From positions 1,376,001 to 1,440,000 of the forward strand of contig CBDCFN010000016.1 in NCBI GenBank assembly GCA_965216315.1: a DNA stretch of 64,000 bases, read 5' to 3'. Under the pieces are notes generated by a model. That model did not search any database and was not told where the DNA came from. It saw only the letters and a list, made by a program, of their open reading frames with translations. Of this stretch, positions 56,269 to 64,000 are shown piece by piece. The translations under genes were made by a program, and so were the position numbers. How positions within the stretch are numbered: position 1 is the stretch's first letter; every line of letters starts with the position of its first letter. Source of the stretch: a bacterium (GTDB taxonomy: Bacteria; UBA10199; 2-02-FULL-50-16; JAJFLM01).

Positions 56269-56404
56269 AATGCCGTTTAGCCTTTATTTTCAGGGCTTTT
56301 TCAAACTCAGCTATTTTTTAGCTGTAGCAGGATAATTGACACTTTTTACGCCTGATTGGGCCCTATTGACGCACCAGTACCAATATGAGACCTTGGAGCG
56401 CCCT

Positions 56405-58369
56405 ATGGCGTTACAGCCCCACCCATTCGTCGCAATCGACCCCCTTAAAGAGCAAGTCTTGAATTATCTCAACCTCACTCTATGGGTGAACCCGGACCCG
56501 CAGCTGTCCTTGCCACGCGTACTCGAACGCGTCGCCTCGCAGTACGGCACCAAAACCGCCCTCATGGAAAAGGTGAATGGAAACTATGAACCTATTAGCT
56601 TCCACGAACTCCTCTCCGATGCGATGGCGACCGCAGCTGCCTTAAGGGACAGTGGGCTTAAGCCGGGAGGAAAAACCGCTCTCCTCCTCAAAAATTCTCC
56701 TGTCTGGGTGTTAGGTGACTTTGGGACACTATTCGCTGGTGGCACGATGGTCCCGATCTACCCGACGCTCACTCCCGCTGCGATCGAGTATATATTAAAG
56801 GACTCCGCGACCGAGATACTCATCTTGGAGGACAAAGTGCAGTACCGTAAAATAGCCGACAAACTCGCTGCGCTCCCCCTGTTGCGTAAAATTGTCATTC
56901 GTCATCCGGAGGGTATCGAACTCGGCGACCAAGCTATTTCATGGCAGGACTTTCTCGATCAAGGTCGCCAATCACTCCCCGATCATGTTGACGCCATCCA
57001 TAAGGTCGTGGACTCGCTGCAACGTGATGATGTCGCGAGCATCGTCTATACGAGTGGTACGACAGGAGAACCTAAGGGGGTAATGCTCACGCACCTTAAT
57101 TTCATCAGCACTGTCTTCGGGCTCATGTCCGTTACCGACTTTAACTCCAATGATCGCTTTTTATCCCTCCTGCCTTTATCTCACGTTTTTGAACGTAGCT
57201 TCGGGTACTATGCCGCCTTAATAAGCGGTTCGATGATTGCTTATGCCGAAGGAATAGAAACACTTAACAAAAATTTCCAGGAGATACAGCCAACCATATG
57301 CGCGGCCGTCCCCCGCATTTTTGAAAAAATCTATACGCGCGTCAATACGGAGTTAATTAAGGGATATAGATTTAAGCGATCATTATTCCATTGGGCCAGC
57401 GGTGTCGGTGAAAAGATTTGGGATATCTGGCTGACGGGCCTCAAGGAAAGCGGCGAGCGCAATAATAAGCGCTTACGCCATCGAGTCGAGGATCACCCTG
57501 ACCAAAGCCTGCGCTGGAACCAAAAATTGTGGCTACGAAGTCAGTACTGGTTGGCAAAGCAACTGGTCTACAAGCGTATTCGGTCCAAATTTGGCGGCTC
57601 CATTCGCTATTTTGTCACCGGAGGGGCTCCGCTGTCCGCCGAAGTCATTACCTTCTTTCGCAATTTGCAGATTATTATTTACGAAGGCTATGGGCTCACG
57701 GAAACAAGCCCAGTCATCAGTTTCAATTATGGGAATGCCTACAAACCCGGGACCGTCGGCAAACTCATTGCGCACGTAAATGTAAAACTGGCCGATAATG
57801 GTGAAATTCTGGTTAAAGGGCCGAATGTCATGCAAGGCTACCTTAATAAGCCGGAAGCAACCCACGAGGTAATCGATGACGACGGTTGGTTTCACACGGG
57901 AGATATTGGCGAGTGGGACGATGAGCATTTTCTCAAGATCACCGACCGTTTAAAGGAACTGATCGTTCTGAGCACGGGGAAAAATGTTGCGCCTTTACCG
58001 TTAGAACAACGTCTATGCCAATCCGATCTAATTTCACATGTCGCTGTCATCGGCAACAACCGCAAATATATTACCGCGCTGGTTTTCCCTGATATGCAGG
58101 CCTTAGAGGACCATGCCGCTCATCGAGGACTCTCGAAAAACGGTACCGAATCACTCTGTCAGAACGATCAGATTCGTTCCTATGTCCATGAACTCATCAA
58201 TGAAGCCAATAAGCCGTTTTCTTCTTTTGAGCAAATTAAGCGCTTTGTCATCGCGCCCTATGATATTAGCGATGACACGGAGTTACTCACCCCGACCTTG
58301 AAACTGAAGCGAAAAAAAGTTGAAGAGAAATTCAAAGATTTGATCGAAAAACAGCTTTATCCCCGATAA
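56405..58369 (+). CDS. fadD: Long-chain acyl-CoA synthetase (AMP-binding)
   Basis: YTSGTTGEPKG, LPLSHVFER, YGLTETSP, HTGDIG; start taken at ATG 56405 with GGAG. Confidence 0.9.
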   Translation: MALQPHPFVAIDPLKEQVLNYLNLTLWVNPDPQLSLPRVLERVASQYGTKTALMEKVNGNYEPISFHELLSDAMATAAALRDSGLKPGGKTALLLKNSPVWVLGDFGTLFAGGTMVPIYPTLTPAAIEYILKDSATEILILEDKVQYRKIADKLAALPLLRKIVIRHPEGIELGDQAISWQDFLDQGRQSLPDHVDAIHKVVDSLQRDDVASIVYTSGTTGEPKGVMLTHLNFISTVFGLMSVTDFNSNDRFLSLLPLSHVFERSFGYYAALISGSMIAYAEGIETLNKNFQEIQPTICAAVPRIFEKIYTRVNTELIKGYRFKRSLFHWASGVGEKIWDIWLTGLKESGERNNKRLRHRVEDHPDQSLRWNQKLWLRSQYWLAKQLVYKRIRSKFGGSIRYFVTGGAPLSAEVITFFRNLQIIIYEGYGLTETSPVISFNYGNAYKPGTVGKLIAHVNVKLADNGEILVKGPNVMQGYLNKPEATHEVIDDDGWFHTGDIGEWDDEHFLKITDRLKELIVLSTGKNVAPLPLEQRLCQSDLISHVAVIGNNRKYITALVFPDMQALEDHAAHRGLSKNGTESLCQNDQIRSYVHELINEANKPFSSFEQIKRFVIAPYDISDDTELLTPTLKLKRKKVEEKFKDLIEKQLYPR

Positions 58370-58441: not shown

Positions 58442-59803
58442 TCAACCACCCGAGCGCTGCAGGATCGTAAACTCAGTCCGGCGGTTTCTCGCGCGGCCCA
58501 ACGCCGTATCGTTGGTATCGATTGGTTTGCTCTCGCCAAAACCCTTCGCAACCATACGACTAGACGAGACGCCACGTTGGACTAAGTAAGCCATGACGGA
58601 GCGAGATCGCCGTTCTGACAGTCGCTGGTTATACTGATCGGAACCAACGGCATCCGTATGACCTTCAATTTGGATGCGTAGAATCTCAGGATGACGCTTC
58701 ATAACATCCGCGACGGCGTCTAAGATGTGGAAGGAAATCGGCCGTATCACCGCTTTATCGAATTCGAAGTGGATCTTCTGCGTGATAACAATCCGTTCTT
58801 TTTCAACGCGGACGATCGGCACCGGAGCTGGCGGCGGCGGCGGCAAATCAACGATGCGCGGCTTGGTATAACTGACGCCGACAAGTCCACGAAAATCAGG
58901 CGAGCCATAACCAAAGGTCAAACCGGCACCCGCACCGACATCAATCTCCCAGCCCTCCCAGGGCCTAAAACGCGCTCCACCCAACACTTCAAGAGGTAAT
59001 TCAGACTCCCGATCAAAGAAGTCACTCGTGACGGTTGCACCCCAGATCTCCATAATCACATCCATCCACTCGAGGGCTTTGACGTTGACACCCAAACCAT
59101 AGGTAAACTTATCGTCTTCTTGGACGTTCAAATTTACGGGGCGCACCGAATCACGCATAAAATAACCTAAATTCAAGGCTACGTAGAGGCGTTCCCAGGC
59201 ATGCACATCAAAGATGACATCCAGTCCACCGGCAAAGCTATCATTACCGACTAGTTTGTCGCCATCACCGGTTGGAAAGAAAATATAGGGTCGCAAGGCC
59301 AATCCGACCGGATGCACGAAATCATTGACTAACCTAAATTTGGCCTCGAGACGAATATCACCCATCCGAGCGACATTCTCAGCCGGCGCATTGGGTGCGA
59401 ACACAGGATTAAAAAACTGCTCGTACAGGGCAACCGGAATATCGATGCCCATTTGAAACCAATCAGTCCACCCCACGGAGGCATAGGCATCTAGCATGAG
59501 CAGATGATCAATGATCGGACCGCGCCGGGCTCCGCCGATACCAAACTCGACCGGTCGATAGGCATAATTGAACATGCCGCCGACCTTCCACTGCCATTTT
59601 TGCATGGTCTGTGAACTGTATTGCCCAAAATACTTTGACGTATCGATGGATGGCAGGAATTTTTGCGCACTCGCGTCAGGCGCCGCCTGCACCGTGAGAG
59701 GCGCAAGGGTCACAGCAATCACTACTGCTAGCAAAAACCGCCTTATCCTCAACCGACTCAAATTCTTGATTGTTGTGGCCACTCTATCCTCCCTCTTGTT
59801 CAT
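58442..59803 (-). CDS. Outer-membrane beta-barrel plus OmpA C-terminal domain protein
   Basis: Signal peptide, amphipathic strands, PPPPP linker, IEGHTD..N..LSERR..NRR.EF; alternative GTG start at 59782 with GGAGG. Confidence 0.92.
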   Translation of the reverse strand: MNKREDRVATTIKNLSRLRIRRFLLAVVIAVTLAPLTVQAAPDASAQKFLPSIDTSKYFGQYSSQTMQKWQWKVGGMFNYAYRPVEFGIGGARRGPIIDHLLMLDAYASVGWTDWFQMGIDIPVALYEQFFNPVFAPNAPAENVARMGDIRLEAKFRLVNDFVHPVGLALRPYIFFPTGDGDKLVGNDSFAGGLDVIFDVHAWERLYVALNLGYFMRDSVRPVNLNVQEDDKFTYGLGVNVKALEWMDVIMEIWGATVTSDFFDRESELPLEVLGGARFRPWEGWEIDVGAGAGLTFGYGSPDFRGLVGVSYTKPRIVDLPPPPPAPVPIVRVEKERIVITQKIHFEFDKAVIRPISFHILDAVADVMKRHPEILRIQIEGHTDAVGSDQYNQRLSERRSRSVMAYLVQRGVSSSRMVAKGFGESKPIDTNDTALGRARNRRTEFTILQRSGG

Positions 59804-59885: not shown

Positions 59886-60716
59886 TCATTGAAGAAAAAT
59901 TTTCTTCCCGAGTTGGGCGGCAATTTCCCGTAACGATGCACCGCGTTCAAACTCGATAACAACCGTCTGAGATCGTGATTTACGGCTAAAAGGAAAGCGA
60001 TGCAACTCCAAACGCGCATTCCAACCCACCGCACTCACCCGAAGGGCCCATAATTGCCGCCAGCCCTGTCGGCGCGCGTAGGCAATTGCTTGCTTATGAA
60101 TAGAGGCCAAAACCTGGTGCGACTCCGGAGGCGCTGGTATGCCAACGCGGCGCGCTCCACCAAATAATTGGATAAAGGCAGGCGGATAAATATCGGCAGG
60201 CAGCTGCAACTGGGGCCATTCGAAATGAAGTTGTTGCATGATGCGACGCACCGCTTTTTGCTGTCCCCGCGCCTGCTGGATCAGCGCCGCCAAAACATTC
60301 GCGGCCAGACGCGCGCCTTGCCTGTGTTCACCCTGTTTTGCCCGCTCGACGATTCGAAGCGCCTTACTGAATTGCAGCTGATAGTAAGCGTCCCAGGCTG
60401 CCTTAAGTTCCTGTGGTGCTGACTGAGGGCGAAGCAAGTGTATAGACTGACGTGAGCTTTCACGTTGAGGACCAACAACGGTCAGCTCGATCGAGTGTCT
60501 ACGAAAATAACGTTGTAGCTCCTGAGCCAACCCGTTGGCCTCTGCTTGCCACTTCATTTGATCGACAAAAACGAGTAGTCCCGCGACATCTCGCTGCGAG
60601 CCGGCAACTGAAATTCTGCCGAGCGCCAACAATCCTGCCAACACGATCAGCGAGACACCGCAAAGCGTCCTAAATTGAGACAGTCGCGTCTGAGAATAAG
60701 TCGATTTTAGCTTCAA
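59886..60716 (-). CDS. Exported basic hypothetical protein with TPR-like helices
   Basis: GAGGGAG SD before TTG; N-terminal hydrophobic segment; AWDAYYQLQFSKA...IYPP. Confidence 0.7.
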   Translation of the reverse strand: MKLKSTYSQTRLSQFRTLCGVSLIVLAGLLALGRISVAGSQRDVAGLLVFVDQMKWQAEANGLAQELQRYFRRHSIELTVVGPQRESSRQSIHLLRPQSAPQELKAAWDAYYQLQFSKALRIVERAKQGEHRQGARLAANVLAALIQQARGQQKAVRRIMQQLHFEWPQLQLPADIYPPAFIQLFGGARRVGIPAPPESHQVLASIHKQAIAYARRQGWRQLWALRVSAVGWNARLELHRFPFSRKSRSQTVVIEFERGASLREIAAQLGKKIFLQ

Positions 60717-60789: not shown

Positions 60790-60805
60790 TGGCATCGGCC
60801 CTGCA
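60790..60805 (+). promoter_or_regulatory. sigma-54 (-24/-12) promoter
   Basis: TGGCATCGGCCCTGCA: GG-N10-GC. Confidence 0.6.
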
Positions 60806-60818
60806 ATAGCGAAACAAC

Positions 60819-61016
60819 ATGCCCGTGCCAAAACTCATCAAGTCCGTCCGTCGTCCCCAGCCGACCAAAACCCAAGTCGCTGCGGTCGCAACCAATCCGT
60901 ACGAGCAAAAACTGCGCCAGCGCGCAAGTGATTTGACCGCAACCGAACGTTTCGATGAAGCGTCACGGACTATTCGACAAATTCAACAAATCACACGACT
61001 GACTCAACCTATCTAA
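60819..61016 (+). CDS. Small basic hypothetical protein (65 aa)
   Basis: Fills the gap between promoter and next gene; disordered N-terminus, helical C-terminus; no SD. Confidence 0.5.
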   Translation: MPVPKLIKSVRRPQPTKTQVAAVATNPYEQKLRQRASDLTATERFDEASRTIRQIQQITRLTQPI

Positions 61017-61032
61017 CCTTAAGGAGAAATAT

Positions 61033-62475
61033 ATGCCGCCCGCTTCCGTCAGTTCAGAAATTCAGCACCAAATCAAAAAAACGCTTATTAAAGAAACGAC
61101 GACGACAGTCCAAACGCAGGTCCCTTCCTTTGCCCCACAATACTCTCATAACACGCGGAGTCTACACCGCTATCAACATGTCATCGAGGGCGGCGTCTCT
61201 CATACATGCAAAGTAGCCATTCCACCGTTGCCAAAAATCAACGGCCGCACAGTGCATGAAGTTTGGCCGACAACCAGCACGATAGCGGCCAATGAAAAAG
61301 CCTCCGCAACCGGCGACCCACACATTAAGGGTGGAGATGGCGGACGGTTTGATTTTCAAGGTCGTCCCGGACGCGTCTACAATCTCTTGAATGATTCGGG
61401 ACTGCAGCTCAATGCCAAATTCAGAGCTTGGTTGGGTGCTGGAACCGCTATCAGCGAGGTCGGCCTGACCGTAACGGGTCGAGGTGGATATTCCCGCGTC
61501 ACCATGCAAACCAAAGTCGGACGCCAACTCGAAATAAAGATCAACGGGCGCCGCCTTTTACCGGGACAAAGCACACGACTGGCCGATGGCGGCACCCTTC
61601 ACCTCAGCAAAACCGGCAAGTCAGTCTCCATCCGCACCAGAGAAGGCTACCGCACCCGAGTCCACGTTAAAGGAAACGGCCTCCGTGCTCATCTTGATGT
61701 TCATATCAGCAGTCCGCGCCAAGGCGTCGCACGAGATGGCCGCATGCCCGGTGGTCTGCTGGGCCATACCTTCGACAAAGGAAAAGACGCGCGACATGGC
61801 GCTAAAGGTCGGGGGGCTCAAGGGGAAGGTGCCATCGATGGACACTATACAGATTACGAAGTTCTGGGCGGACTTCATGCCCGGCCAAAAGCAAAAATCA
61901 CCAAGGCAAAGCTGGCGCCGACCACCAGACCCATTGGACCTGTCCATCGCCACTATCTTGGCGACACTCAAAAAACCGAATTCAATGAATTCAACCGAAC
62001 TGAGCTTCAAGAGACATGGCGACAGATCACGCAACAAATGACGGAATCAACCCTCATTCAAAATACACTTAAGCGGAAGCAAAATATTCAGCGGCAAACG
62101 CGTAAAACAGAACGCTTACTCATGGCCGCACTCAACAGTGGCAACATGGATCTTGCCGTTATCATGCTGGCCAGCATCGAAACGCAGCTTGCCAATGACG
62201 TCACGAGTGGCCTTGTCAAACAAATCCACACCCTACAAAAACAACGTCAGTCCCTCTCATCACAGATGGCTAAGCTCGGCAACAAAGGCAAAGATGCCAG
62301 CAAGTTGAGCAGTCTGAGTACGCAGGCCCAGAATATTGGAACGGAGATCTCCTTGCTCCAGACCTTTCTTCAAGATTCGATGTCCAGCAAACGCAACACC
62401 CAGGAATTTGCGAGTAATTGGATACGACAGAGTCATGAAACGACGCGGTCGATTATTCAGAATATTGGCCGGTAA
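61033..62475 (+). CDS. GDPH/VWD-like domain protein with type III filament-like coiled-coil C-terminus
   Basis: AAGGAG SD; no signal peptide; GDPHIKGGDGGRFDFQG; ends KRNTQEFASNWIRQSHETTRSIIQNIGR. Confidence 0.75.
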   Translation: MPPASVSSEIQHQIKKTLIKETTTTVQTQVPSFAPQYSHNTRSLHRYQHVIEGGVSHTCKVAIPPLPKINGRTVHEVWPTTSTIAANEKASATGDPHIKGGDGGRFDFQGRPGRVYNLLNDSGLQLNAKFRAWLGAGTAISEVGLTVTGRGGYSRVTMQTKVGRQLEIKINGRRLLPGQSTRLADGGTLHLSKTGKSVSIRTREGYRTRVHVKGNGLRAHLDVHISSPRQGVARDGRMPGGLLGHTFDKGKDARHGAKGRGAQGEGAIDGHYTDYEVLGGLHARPKAKITKAKLAPTTRPIGPVHRHYLGDTQKTEFNEFNRTELQETWRQITQQMTESTLIQNTLKRKQNIQRQTRKTERLLMAALNSGNMDLAVIMLASIETQLANDVTSGLVKQIHTLQKQRQSLSSQMAKLGNKGKDASKLSSLSTQAQNIGTEISLLQTFLQDSMSSKRNTQEFASNWIRQSHETTRSIIQNIGR

Positions 62476-62489
62476 GAAATGGCAAATGA

Positions 62490-62513
62490 GGGCGCGGCGA
62501 GCAGCGCCTCTAC
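62490..62513 (-). repeat. GTAG-family REP-like hairpin containing the dsbD stop codon
   Basis: Minus strand GTAG-AGGCGC-tGCtcGCc-GCGCCC. Confidence 0.65.
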
Positions 62514-64000
62514 AAGCGGCGTCGCGCCTTTTTCAGAAACTGAATAAACTCACTGGGACCCAGCACGTCACCAACGAGGCGCGCCTCATCGACCTCATTG
62601 CCATGCCGGTCCGTTACAATAAGGGTCGGCCAACCGATGACCTTATAGCGCTCTACGGCTTCTTTGCACCTATCGGTATTTTGAGTACAGTCCACTTTGA
62701 ATGGCACATAATACTGCTTCATGTACCCTTTGACGGCCGCAACCGAGAGAGTCTTTTCTTCCCACTCCAAACACGGCAAACACCAATCCGCATAAAAATC
62801 TATCAACAACCCCTTGTCCTGCGCCTGCGCCTCAGCCAATGCCGCCGCATAATCCTGATGCCAAAATAGTTCCTCGCTGACGGGCTTGGGGCTATCGGAG
62901 TTAATTCGCAAGCCCGTATAGCCCACATACCCATAATAGAGCGCGGGCACTAACAAGAGCACGCCCATCGCACGTTTGACCCAAACGGCTGCGGGACCAC
63001 TGTGGAGCCTGCCGGCCAACGAACCATAAAAAGTCCCGAAGACGAGAATGAGACTCCCCATACCGATGCCAAACGCAAACAAGAGACCAAAGCCATGGAG
63101 CACATCGCGAGTCTGAGCCACCCATACCAGCAAGGCTCCAATCACGGGGCCAACGCAAGGTGCCGCCAAGATCCCCATTGTCACGCCAGCGATAGCAGCC
63201 CCGCTGTATCCCCTCCCCCCAACCTTGGCGAGCCGGTTACGCATCCACAACGGGACCTGCAATTCATAGACGCCAAACATGCCCAGCGCAAAGAATGCGA
63301 ACAACGCCGCACCCAACATGAGAAACCACGGATTTTGAAACAGAAATCCGAGCTGCAAGCCCAAAATGGCCGCCAGTACTCCAAAAACGGCATAGGTCAC
63401 CGCCATCGCCAAGACCAACACACTCGTCAGCGCAAAATTCCGACTGTGGCGTTTTTCGCGGCGGACACCGACGACGGCCAGGGTCAAGGGTATCAGCGGC
63501 AACACACAGGGGGTAAAATCAGTCAAAAACCCACCGATAAAAGCCAGCAAATACGCCAACCAGCCCCTCGCCTTGAGCGCATCGACCAAACGACCCTTAA
63601 GCGTGTTATCTTCCGTTTGGCTCATGACCGTATCCGGCGATTGACCGGAAACAATTTTCACCGGAATCTTGAGATCGATGGACTTCTCACGAAAGCAAAT
63701 TTTAGGAGAACAGCCCTGATAGAAAAGTCGTAGCGTAACCGCTTGCTCGCCCAAAGGAGCATCCCTTAAAGCCCGCAGTCCAATACTGGCCAAAGCAGGC
63801 CCCTGATAAATCTTCAATTCCTTCTTTAAAAAGGGATCATTTTTCAATTCAGCCTCAGGATATTTAATCGAAGCAACCTTGATCCCATTGCCATGGACTA
63901 AATCGACACGTGTCTTGTCCTCGTAGAGATAATGACCCACTGGTATATCAAAAAAAATGTCTACGTTTGCGACCTCTCCCCTTTTCACGGTCCGCGTCGT
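62510..64000 (-). CDS. dsbD: Thiol:disulfide interchange protein DsbD (5' end probably outside the window)
   Basis: YQGC...C, FTPCVLP, APCVGP, WCLPC thioredoxin domain; frame open to the window edge. Confidence 0.9.
   Translation of the reverse strand, partial: TTRTVKRGEVANVDIFFDIPVGHYLYEDKTRVDLVHGNGIKVASIKYPEAELKNDPFLKKELKIYQGPALASIGLRALRDAPLGEQAVTLRLFYQGCSPKICFREKSIDLKIPVKIVSGQSPDTVMSQTEDNTLKGRLVDALKARGWLAYLLAFIGGFLTDFTPCVLPLIPLTLAVVGVRREKRHSRNFALTSVLVLAMAVTYAVFGVLAAILGLQLGFLFQNPWFLMLGAALFAFFALGMFGVYELQVPLWMRNRLAKVGGRGYSGAAIAGVTMGILAAPCVGPVIGALLVWVAQTRDVLHGFGLLFAFGIGMGSLILVFGTFYGSLAGRLHSGPAAVWVKRAMGVLLLVPALYYGYVGYTGLRINSDSPKPVSEELFWHQDYAAALAEAQAQDKGLLIDFYADWCLPCLEWEEKTLSVAAVKGYMKQYYVPFKVDCTQNTDRCKEAVERYKVIGWPTLIVTDRHGNEVDEARLVGDVLGPSEFIQFLKKARRRL

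Follow-up and report, generated by a model that had tools for sequence, protein, structure and literature searches.

What might a bacterial protein be doing that carries the GDPH motif of mucin-type VWD domains, has no signal peptide and ends in a long coiled coil? The question is raised by a stretch of 64,000 nucleotides (nt) of bacterial DNA (contig CBDCFN010000016.1, positions 1,376,001 to 1,440,000; hereafter the window), in which a sigma-54 promoter-like motif precedes a small open reading frame (ORF) and the gene of a protein of 480 amino acids (aa). An initial annotation, made from the letters of the window, had proposed that this protein is a filament or tip subunit exported by a secretion system of type III (T3SS) and displaying an adhesive, possibly self-releasing domain. 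In our assessment there is an even chance that an atypical T3SS, in which neither needle nor secretin was detected, exports the 480-aa protein as a substrate that processes itself; a filament or tip role is unproven. We read the protein as a T3SS substrate because its C-terminal tail is paralogous to proteins of the T3SS cluster, because the genome has a type III system and a sigma-54 motif is shared with two of the cluster paralogs, and because the protein lacks a signal peptide although its middle domain belongs to an extracellular type. We read it as self-processing because the type III-secreted proteins NopE1 and VIC_001052 self-cleave at GD/PH, according to the available part of their description (PMC6506597).

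The C-terminal tail and its paralogs in the type III cluster

The full-length AlphaFold2 model of the 480-aa protein (mean predicted local distance difference test score, pLDDT, 66.3) comprises a disordered N-terminus, a beta-rich domain with strands across residues 89-226, a linker and three long helices (residues 322-368, 372-415 and 419-479). The beta-rich domain and the C-terminal coiled coil had both been anticipated in the initial annotation, as had a 480-aa ORF without signal peptide, and the ORF list and the hydropathy profile agree with it. No Sec-type N-terminus was found, the peak Kyte-Doolittle 10-residue mean being 0.33 for segments starting within the first 40 residues, and the protein has no transmembrane helix. 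Its first 80 residues are rich in T (12 %), P (10 %), V (10 %), S (9 %) and Q (8 %), which also bears out the S/T/Q/P-rich N-terminus described previously, and the whole protein contains a single cysteine. No Pfam or NCBIfam family names it. We found 37 relatives at an expectation value (E) <= 0.001 among 7,997 scored candidates, while an exhaustive search of representatives returned 596 relatives, 259 of them at E <= 1e-10. Twenty full-length relatives could be aligned along the whole length (alignment A1). Judging from this conservation, the gene is real and conserved. The search matches split in two, many of them sharing only residues ~80-290 and fewer sharing only residues ~320-480. A1 also displays a motif, Y..L(I/L).G...GT(I/V)C(L/I)P...(I/V)PPP, at columns ~150-200 (residues ~45-80; window positions 61165-61272). 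Its cysteine is mostly conserved, and the motif is followed by the VWD domain or, where the protein is short, by the tail.

We found that the tail has homologs in the same genome and that they belong to its T3SS cluster. A hidden Markov model (HMM) of the tail was searched against the 25,219 ORFs of the genome. After the 480-aa protein itself, it matched C16:368209-370038 (E 7.5e-6) and 347376-347936 (E 0.052), and further C16:366210-368132 (domain E 0.011) and C16:364667-366067 (E 1.5). Each of these four positions falls within the T3SS cluster (339-372 kb) or next to it; four unrelated matches (E 1-5) lie elsewhere. A single-sequence search of the genome for tail paralogs returned none, the profile being needed to find those of the cluster. 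Moreover, further genomes of the phylum have the same second-rank tail matches (E 6e-10 to 3e-6), and in four of the five genomes that have both on one contig, a tail paralog is found 24-32 kb from sctV. The paralog regions consist of tandem genes, often with glycine-rich products, that have a C-terminal domain in common. When the C-terminal 170 aa of 13 cluster paralogs from 7 genomes (A7) were compared with the tail alignment (A2, 17 sequences) by hhalign, the two matched over 124 columns with a probability of 97.9 % and E 5.3e-13. Hence, the proposed connection to type III secretion is supported by a route that had not been foreseen, the paralogy of the tail to the C-termini of cluster proteins; the other half of the claim, a likeness to needle or filament subunits, is not.

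In the window's genome, the cluster carries three such paralogs (460, 624 and 601 aa) followed by two TPR genes, and the gene of an FHA-sigma-54 activator stands on the other strand. TPR genes follow in the same manner in type III translocator operons. In addition, a sigma-54 motif lies directly 5' of two of the three cluster paralogs (C16:364601 and 366259). A7 has no Pfam or PDB family; among solved structures its profile reached no more than the coiled coil of a chemoreceptor (E 0.001) and heptad repeats of coronavirus spikes, and a Pfam scan of its members gave scattered coiled-coil families only.

Modelled by itself from 47 sequences (pLDDT 86.9), the tail is predicted to form helices at tail positions 3-50, 53-96 and 100-160, that is, of 48, 44 and 61 residues. 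The turn between helices 1 and 2, SGN, is set in the most hydrophobic stretch, LLMAALN-SGN-MDLAVIMLA (residues 362-380; Kyte-Doolittle 19-residue mean 1.52 at residue 362), and this hydrophobic hairpin tip is the best-conserved block of the family. The tail occupies the extreme C-terminus: the profile match ends at most 2 residues from the end in 52 of 53 proteins, the exception being the cluster paralog P0176. What stands before it varies, from a short N-terminal region only (proteins of 117-340 aa) to the VWD domain, an extra N-terminal helical region or, in P0099, an RTX-like segment (RTX-type repeat at E 6.7e-4, below the cut-off). Since the tail occurs in these several settings, with other passengers or with none, the earlier idea of one tail bearing different passengers was right.

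Searches for a known counterpart of the tail gave little. The A2 profile reached PDB sequences at chance level only (best E 0.13, PTPN22), a Pfam scan of the A2 members returned nothing but scattered coiled-coil families, and Foldseek of the tail gave no match at E <= 0.001 (best E 0.14). In a wide VIA-align search, the tail scored Z 9.6-11.7 to 50 unrelated helical hairpins, about 13 being needed for helical models; among these matches are moesin, HP0958, the IpaB 74-224 coiled coil, ESCRT-III and chemoreceptors. In a language-model atlas, the only named families near the tail are EspA, LcrV, T3SS_needle_F, DUF720 and the CT620/621 (chlamydial T3SS) effector, at scores of 0.86-0.91, the clusters with EspA on 12 % of their members scoring 0.91. 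These neighbours are all type III families, which we take as a lead only. Altogether, the combination of a VWD-like domain with this tail is an undescribed architecture, and the tail family itself is absent from Pfam, NCBIfam and the PDB.

The position of the conserved part at the C-terminus might also speak for another way out of the cell. The protein could be a surface adhesin exported by a different route, for instance by a type I system with a C-terminal signal, and its likeness to T3SS-cluster proteins would then reflect a shared coiled-coil module only. Type I signals are likewise C-terminal, the RTX-type repeat of P0099 fits such a route, VWD-like relatives occur within RTX proteins (P0056, P0111), and the genome encodes a type II system (GspD, GspE). 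However, all homologs of the tail found in this genome are proteins of the T3SS cluster, no type I genes lie nearby at any locus read, and the protein has no Sec signal for the type II route. Moreover, a strongly conserved helical domain of 160 residues is, to our knowledge, unlike type I signals. We regard export by such a route as distinctly improbable.

The VWD-like domain and its GDPH motif

In a Foldseek search, the model retrieved the VWD domains of MUC5AC, MUC2, VWF, FCGBP, MUC5B and RGMB, with 42 matches at E <= 0.001 (best 1.6e-6). The twelve best matches cover 146-217 aligned columns at 13-18 % sequence identity (E 1.6e-6 to 1e-3). Sequence profiles of relatives point in the same direction. 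When 28 relatives of the domain were scanned, 6 matched Pfam VWD at E <= 0.01 and 4 scored over the cut-off of 22.9 bits, and 5 of the 20 full-length family members gave weak VWD matches (best E 7.8e-4). The GDPH motif stands at the N-terminal edge of the domain, just ahead of the first strands, as it does in VWD domains. The claim that GDPH at residue 94 marks a VWD domain is thus confirmed in terms of fold, by Foldseek and by the relatives over the Pfam cut-off, and the motif is at the canonical start. The eukaryotic VWD domains with GDPH (MUC2, MUC5AC, FCGBP, RGMB, VWF) share with the window's protein the predicted fold and the place of the motif at the start of the domain. Unlike them, the window's protein is bacterial, has one cysteine where they have a disulfide-rich domain, carries no signal peptide and is fused to a coiled-coil tail.

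A second family bears on the same region. Among the 20 full-length family members, DUF1521 is the most-matched family (7 members, best E 0.001) and VWD comes second, all of these matches being sub-threshold. In P0011 and P0044, the DUF1521 match falls on the GDPH region. DUF1521 is the MIIA domain of NopE1, NopE2 and VIC_001052, type III-secreted proteins in which, as the accessible text of the report states, it cuts after the Asp of GDPH upon Ca2+ binding (PMC6506597). These proteins, from Bradyrhizobium (NopE1/NopE2) and Vibrio coralliilyticus (VIC_001052), resemble the window's protein in having GDPH, which in theirs is a metal-dependent self-cleavage site, and in their export by a T3SS without a Sec signal, insofar as they are portrayed in that text (PMC6506597). 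There are also differences. MIIA is described in the same excerpt as disordered without Ca2+ (PMC6506597), whereas the window's domain is predicted to be an ordered VWD beta-sandwich, and the helical tail has no counterpart in NopE1/NopE2 or VIC_001052 as characterized there. Furthermore, the T3SS of the window's genome is of another type than the one exporting these proteins. As a lead from sequence profiles, VWD and MIIA may be related, with the window's family lying between them; this link is drawn from sub-threshold HMM matches only. A literature search on GDPH autocleavage returned MIIA work only, and one on VWD domains together with type III secretion found no paper.

The company that the domain keeps elsewhere is extracellular. 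Proteins with a related domain also carry RTX repeats, cadherin and Big_9 repeats, dockerin, EF-hand or PA-IL lectin modules. In P0055 (741 aa, from a metagenome), residues 340-532 form a VWD-like domain, joined to the N-terminal motif known from type III translocators of the NolX/HrpF kind. As far as its domain make-up tells, P0055 is a second, independent pairing of a VWD-like domain with type III secretion. A single-sequence search found no paralog of the VWD domain elsewhere in the window's genome, and tblastn of the domain against plasmids returned one Paracoccus hypothetical protein and no rhizobial plasmid gene. Within the family, GDPH is retained in 24 of the 29 proteins that have a complete middle domain and tail.

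A type III system without detectable needle or secretin

The initial annotation presupposed a type III apparatus in the genome, and a non-flagellar one was found. The genome is 98 % complete, and its sole type III cluster (C16:339083-373819) lies 1.07 Mb from the gene of the 480-aa protein. There is one FHIPEP protein, SctV, scoring 806 bits against the hrcV cut-off of 692. Around it are encoded an FHA/PEGA SctD-like protein, SctJ, a FliG-like protein, SctL, SctN, FliJ-like and FliK-like (SctO, SctP-like) and SctQ-like proteins, a FliO-like protein, SctR, SctS, SctT, a sigma-28-type factor and TPR proteins. The cluster also encodes FliM-like, Ser/Thr-kinase, FHA and PEGA proteins. The sctU gene is located apart from the cluster, at 805 kb (C16:805026), where it adjoins a Ser/Thr kinase gene. 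Because the genes of the system are scattered in this way, the distance of 1.07 Mb counts for little. No flagellin, rod or hook signature was found in the genome. Likewise, no SctF was detected, the best Pfam needle match (E 0.14) lying elsewhere, and no SctC, the only strong secretin being the GspD that stands beside GspE of the type II system.

Such a composition is reminiscent of the 'needleless' T3SS* of Myxococcus xanthus (mxan_2434-2464). In the consulted portion of its description, this system has a type III-like export apparatus and a sorting platform, is without secretin, needle or translocon, and is required for the lysis of prey (PMC12075869). The genome analysed here has SctV, J, L, N, Q, R, S, T and U and no detectable SctF or SctC, so that the two systems are likened by component inventory and by that partial description.

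One protein of the cluster deserves mention on its own account. P0177 (183 aa, rich in Gly, Ala and Ser; C16:347385-347936, L002:10385-10936) is encoded between the SctD-like gene and a TPR gene that stands ahead of sctJ. Its C-terminal helix is strongly conserved and ends in ...KAKHDTEMAQVRNFRVT. The protein belongs to no Pfam, NCBIfam or PDB family, and its profile (A5) gave nothing relevant against solved structures. We consider P0177 a candidate rod- or needle-like component. Another C-terminus of the IIQN type in a T3SS cluster of the phylum belongs to a 285-aa protein encoded beside cluster paralogs in genome G060 (L042:413-1270, minus strand), which ends in ...ARTASTIIQNWKQ.

These C-termini bring back the filament. 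The tail could be a polymerising needle or filament module like SctF, EspA or Bsp22, in which case the protein would form or cap a T3SS filament displaying the VWD domain. SctF proteins (MxiH, YscF, AscF), EspA and Bsp22 are helical with a free C-terminus, as is the tail, although length and number of helices differ. The C-terminal position of the tail in 52 of the 53 tail proteins, the constancy of the helical part beside a variable passenger, as in filament proteins, and the atlas leads to EspA, LcrV and needle clusters would all suit such a role. In agreement with it, hhalign placed the C-termini of the tail and of MxiH end to end (SNWIRQSHETTRSIIQNI and SNTVKVIKDVDAAIIQNF; 18 columns, 33 % identity, E 0.032), at a probability of only 1.6 %. 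The end of P0177, SNILKAKHDTEMAQVRNFRVT, resembles that of the tail (hhalign of the tail with A5: 77.6 %, E 1.9e-5, over the last 29 columns), and A5 also aligns end to end with MxiH over 35 columns (E 0.0074, probability 5.3 %).

On the other hand, the direct comparisons with needles argue against this explanation. An alignment of 13 SctF proteins of 81-87 aa, taken from annotated needle genes of Aeromonas and Shigella plasmids (A6), gave hhalign probabilities of 0.9 % with the tail and 0.7 % with the P0177 family; A6 holds mostly needles of the Ysc type, and a deeper Inv-Mxi-Spa alignment would be the fairer test. BLASTP of the tail against MxiH yielded E 13, and neither T3SS_needle_F (PF09392) nor EspA (PF03433) was matched at E <= 1 by the 17 tail sequences (25 families shown). 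The needle hairpin is a helix-turn-helix of ~80 aa in all, whereas the tail consists of three helices of 44-61 residues within a 480-aa protein. No needle, EspA or tip protein figures among the VIA-align matches of the tail, which excludes nothing since coiled coils do not discriminate. Moreover, since neither SctF nor SctC was detected, the system may lack a needle that the protein could lengthen, cap or be built upon. Altogether, only the last ~18 residues resemble needles, a likeness without statistical support at the sequence level, and the folds matched are generic helical hairpins. A needle or filament module therefore appears quite unlikely, and the resemblance to needle and filament subunits noted in the initial annotation was not upheld in the comparisons with SctF, MxiH and EspA.

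Promoter, operon and the proposed course of export

The -24/-12 promoter and the 65-aa ORF that had been claimed upstream of the gene are both present (Table 1), and both are conserved in related loci or genomes. The TGGCATCGGCCCTGCA form is without significance in the window alone, with 1 match where 0.26 are expected and at least one match in 24 of 100 shuffles. Of 19 distinct related loci, 12 have a TGGYA-N7-YGCW motif 5' of the tail gene, a count that leaves out same-genome duplicates and one locus lacking upstream sequence. Measured from its first nucleotide, the motif stands 28-29 nt before the small ORF's ATG at five loci from two families (the window, L010, L012 and L013 by script, L018 as read off the sequence) and 43-50 nt before it in L011, L030 and L033. 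With a spacing of 28-29 nt, the operon transcript would be nearly leaderless. An rpoN gene was found in the window's genome. Spacing, conservation, RpoN and an activator are thus all in place for a sigma-54 promoter, from which transcription is predicted. In addition, TGGCAY-N5-YTGCW has 107 matches genome-wide against ~12 expected (scaled from the window shuffles), an excess of about tenfold, which points to a putative, very large RpoN regulon in this 3-Mb genome.

The 65-aa ORF has no Pfam family and a single sub-threshold NCBIfam match (E 0.002, 16.8 bits against a cut-off of 490). Counterparts of 53-101 aa, recognized by position and sequence, lie 5' of the tail gene in three lineages, and their alignment (A3) has a helix-turn-helix pattern. 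Complex prediction of the 480-aa protein (A1) with the 65-aa ORF (A3) gave a score of 0.00 and a mark of 0.32, which is uninformative either way. The arrangement recalls the lcrG-lcrV and acrG-acrV pairs, in which the gene of a small helical protein lies directly 5' of that of a larger coiled-coil protein. In the Aeromonas locus, acrG (285 nt) stands before acrV, and an LcrV cluster is among the atlas leads; these pairs have no sequence similarity to the window's pair, and the analogy is one of gene order only. Two small ORFs precede the tail gene at L026, L028-L030 and L032-L034, which belong to one family of the phylum. One of them encodes a 53-aa helical protein, MKPEAL...QKSYxxxGRI, and the second, seen in four of these loci (L026, L028, L029, L033), encodes ~65 aa with a hydrophobic C-terminus. 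The tail protein at these loci is without the VWD domain. Around the window's operon, the order OmpA-like gene, small ORF, target gene and DsbD-like gene is conserved in related genomes and never includes T3SS genes; the DsbD neighbour is also present in L010-L013.

Table 1. Features of the locus and its surroundings (window positions, except where the prefix C16 is given)
Feature	Position	Strand	Basis or remark
Sigma-54 (-24/-12) promoter-like motif, TGGCATCGGCCCTGCA	60790..60805	+	GG-N10-GC, sigma-54 spacing
65-aa ORF at the head of the operon, encoding a small helical protein (putative chaperone or partner)	60819..61016	+	ORF list
Ribosome-binding site AGGAG of the 480-aa gene	61022..61026	+	6 nt 5' of the ATG at 61033
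480-aa protein (P0001), including stop codon	61033..62475	+	ORF list, relatives
Residues 1-80, N-terminal region, low confidence, poorly conserved	61033..61272	+	pLDDT 33-60
Residues 81-290, VWD-fold (VWD/MIIA-like) domain	61273..61902	+	pLDDT 82-91 over residues 111-230; Foldseek
GDPH, residues 94-97, putative autocleavage D95/P96	61312..61323	+	sequence
Residues 291-320, linker, low confidence	61903..61992	+	pLDDT 43-51
Residues 321-480, C-terminal three-helix coiled-coil tail, end SNWIRQSHETTRSIIQNIGR	61993..62472	+	tail-only model
677-aa ORF resembling an AMP-forming acyl-CoA ligase	56336-58369		judged from translation only
453-aa protein, OmpA C-terminal domain	58442-59803		
276-aa protein without family	59886-60716		
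DsbD-type thiol:disulfide interchange protein	62510-63988	opposite to the 480-aa gene	
FHA-sigma-54 activator (Sigma54_activat) flanking the T3SS cluster	C16:372422-373819		

If the 480-aa protein is a self-processing type III substrate, events might run as follows. RpoN and an enhancer-binding protein would activate the -24/-12 promoter, and the message would start almost at the ATG of the small ORF. The 480-aa protein, made without a Sec signal, would reach the type III export gate by way of its disordered N-terminus, with the small 65-aa protein as a possible partner in export. A polar, disordered N-terminus without Sec signal is compatible with type III export and not diagnostic of it. Outside the cytoplasm, the VWD/MIIA-like domain would fold and would probably cut itself between Asp95 and Pro96, like mucin VWD domains and the MIIA domains of the NopE1 type, and this cut would separate the N-terminal 95 residues from a fragment made of the VWD domain and the tail. 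The tail, as the constant part of the family, would dock, assemble or insert like the tails of the T3SS-cluster paralogs, and the VWD domain may serve as an exposed, variable, outward-facing binding module.

Several points weigh against a type III substrate that processes itself. What the comparisons establish are the folds of the domains, the homologies, a conserved promoter and the presence and composition of the T3SS; export and its route, cleavage, and assembly or adhesion are inferred from them. Its gene stands outside the T3SS clusters at all loci examined, next to neighbours of a housekeeping type (OmpA-like, DsbD-like). It is the C-terminal part of the protein that is conserved, although type III signals sit at the N-terminus. 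Among 93 genomes of the phylum, SctV occurs in 91 and the tail in 33 (strong matches in 28); since SctV is nearly universal, its co-occurrence with the tail is uninformative, and most T3SS-bearing relatives do without the tail. As no secretin was detected, the crossing of the outer membrane is unexplained. At the level of profiles, the 480-aa protein does not match Pfam VWD (PF00094) at E <= 1, nor does anything in the genome at E <= 10, and the protein has no match to DUF1521 (PF07481) at E <= 1 or E <= 10. GDPH is lost in 5 of the 29 complete members, namely P0003, which is the closest genomic relative, P0014, P0015, P0019 and P0026, and cleavage therefore cannot be essential to the family. 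Finally, the cluster paralogs have no assigned function and could be structural or cytoplasmic.

Some of these points would equally suit a protein that never leaves the cell, a coiled-coil protein of the cytoplasm or associated with the inner membrane, for instance one that scaffolds or regulates the T3SS-like machine, with GDPH as a relic. Such a protein would need neither signal peptide nor transmembrane helix, could dispense with GDPH as those five members do, and would be in keeping with cluster paralogs of unassigned function and with a tail whose fold matches are generic cytoplasmic coiled coils. However, elsewhere the VWD-like domain is joined to RTX, cadherin, dockerin or lectin modules, which are extracellular; the glycine-rich cluster paralogs lie beside TPR chaperone-like genes, like secreted translocators; and the great majority of complete members (24/29) do retain GDPH. 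We consider a purely intracellular role very unlikely.

Beyond the self-processing substrate proposed here, a bolder reading can be put forward, which is rather unlikely in our estimate. The tail would define an unrecognised cargo or 'needle-substitute' family of needle-less, secretin-less T3SS, whose members would be exported through a T3SS-like gate and would assemble or insert via their hydrophobic-tipped coiled coil. In the member studied here, the VWD/MIIA-type module would cut off its own export leader at GD/PH and then bind the surface of a target cell, possibly covalently. The family would then be an evolutionary bridge from mucin-type VWD domains to the MIIA domain found in type III effectors of rhizobia and Vibrio.

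The needle-less T3SS-like systems of predatory bacteria lyse prey, and according to the part of the account available, their exported cargo and its exit route are unknown (PMC12075869). In this sense, a conserved C-terminal domain that marks both a tandem gene family in the clusters and dispersed members provides a concrete candidate substrate set. For biochemistry, the family might in addition be a source of a small VWD domain that is free of cysteine and cleaves itself. Moreover, it ties together two self-cleaving GDPH domains, that of animal VWD proteins and bacterial MIIA, and could explain the origin of the autocleavage module of type III effectors.

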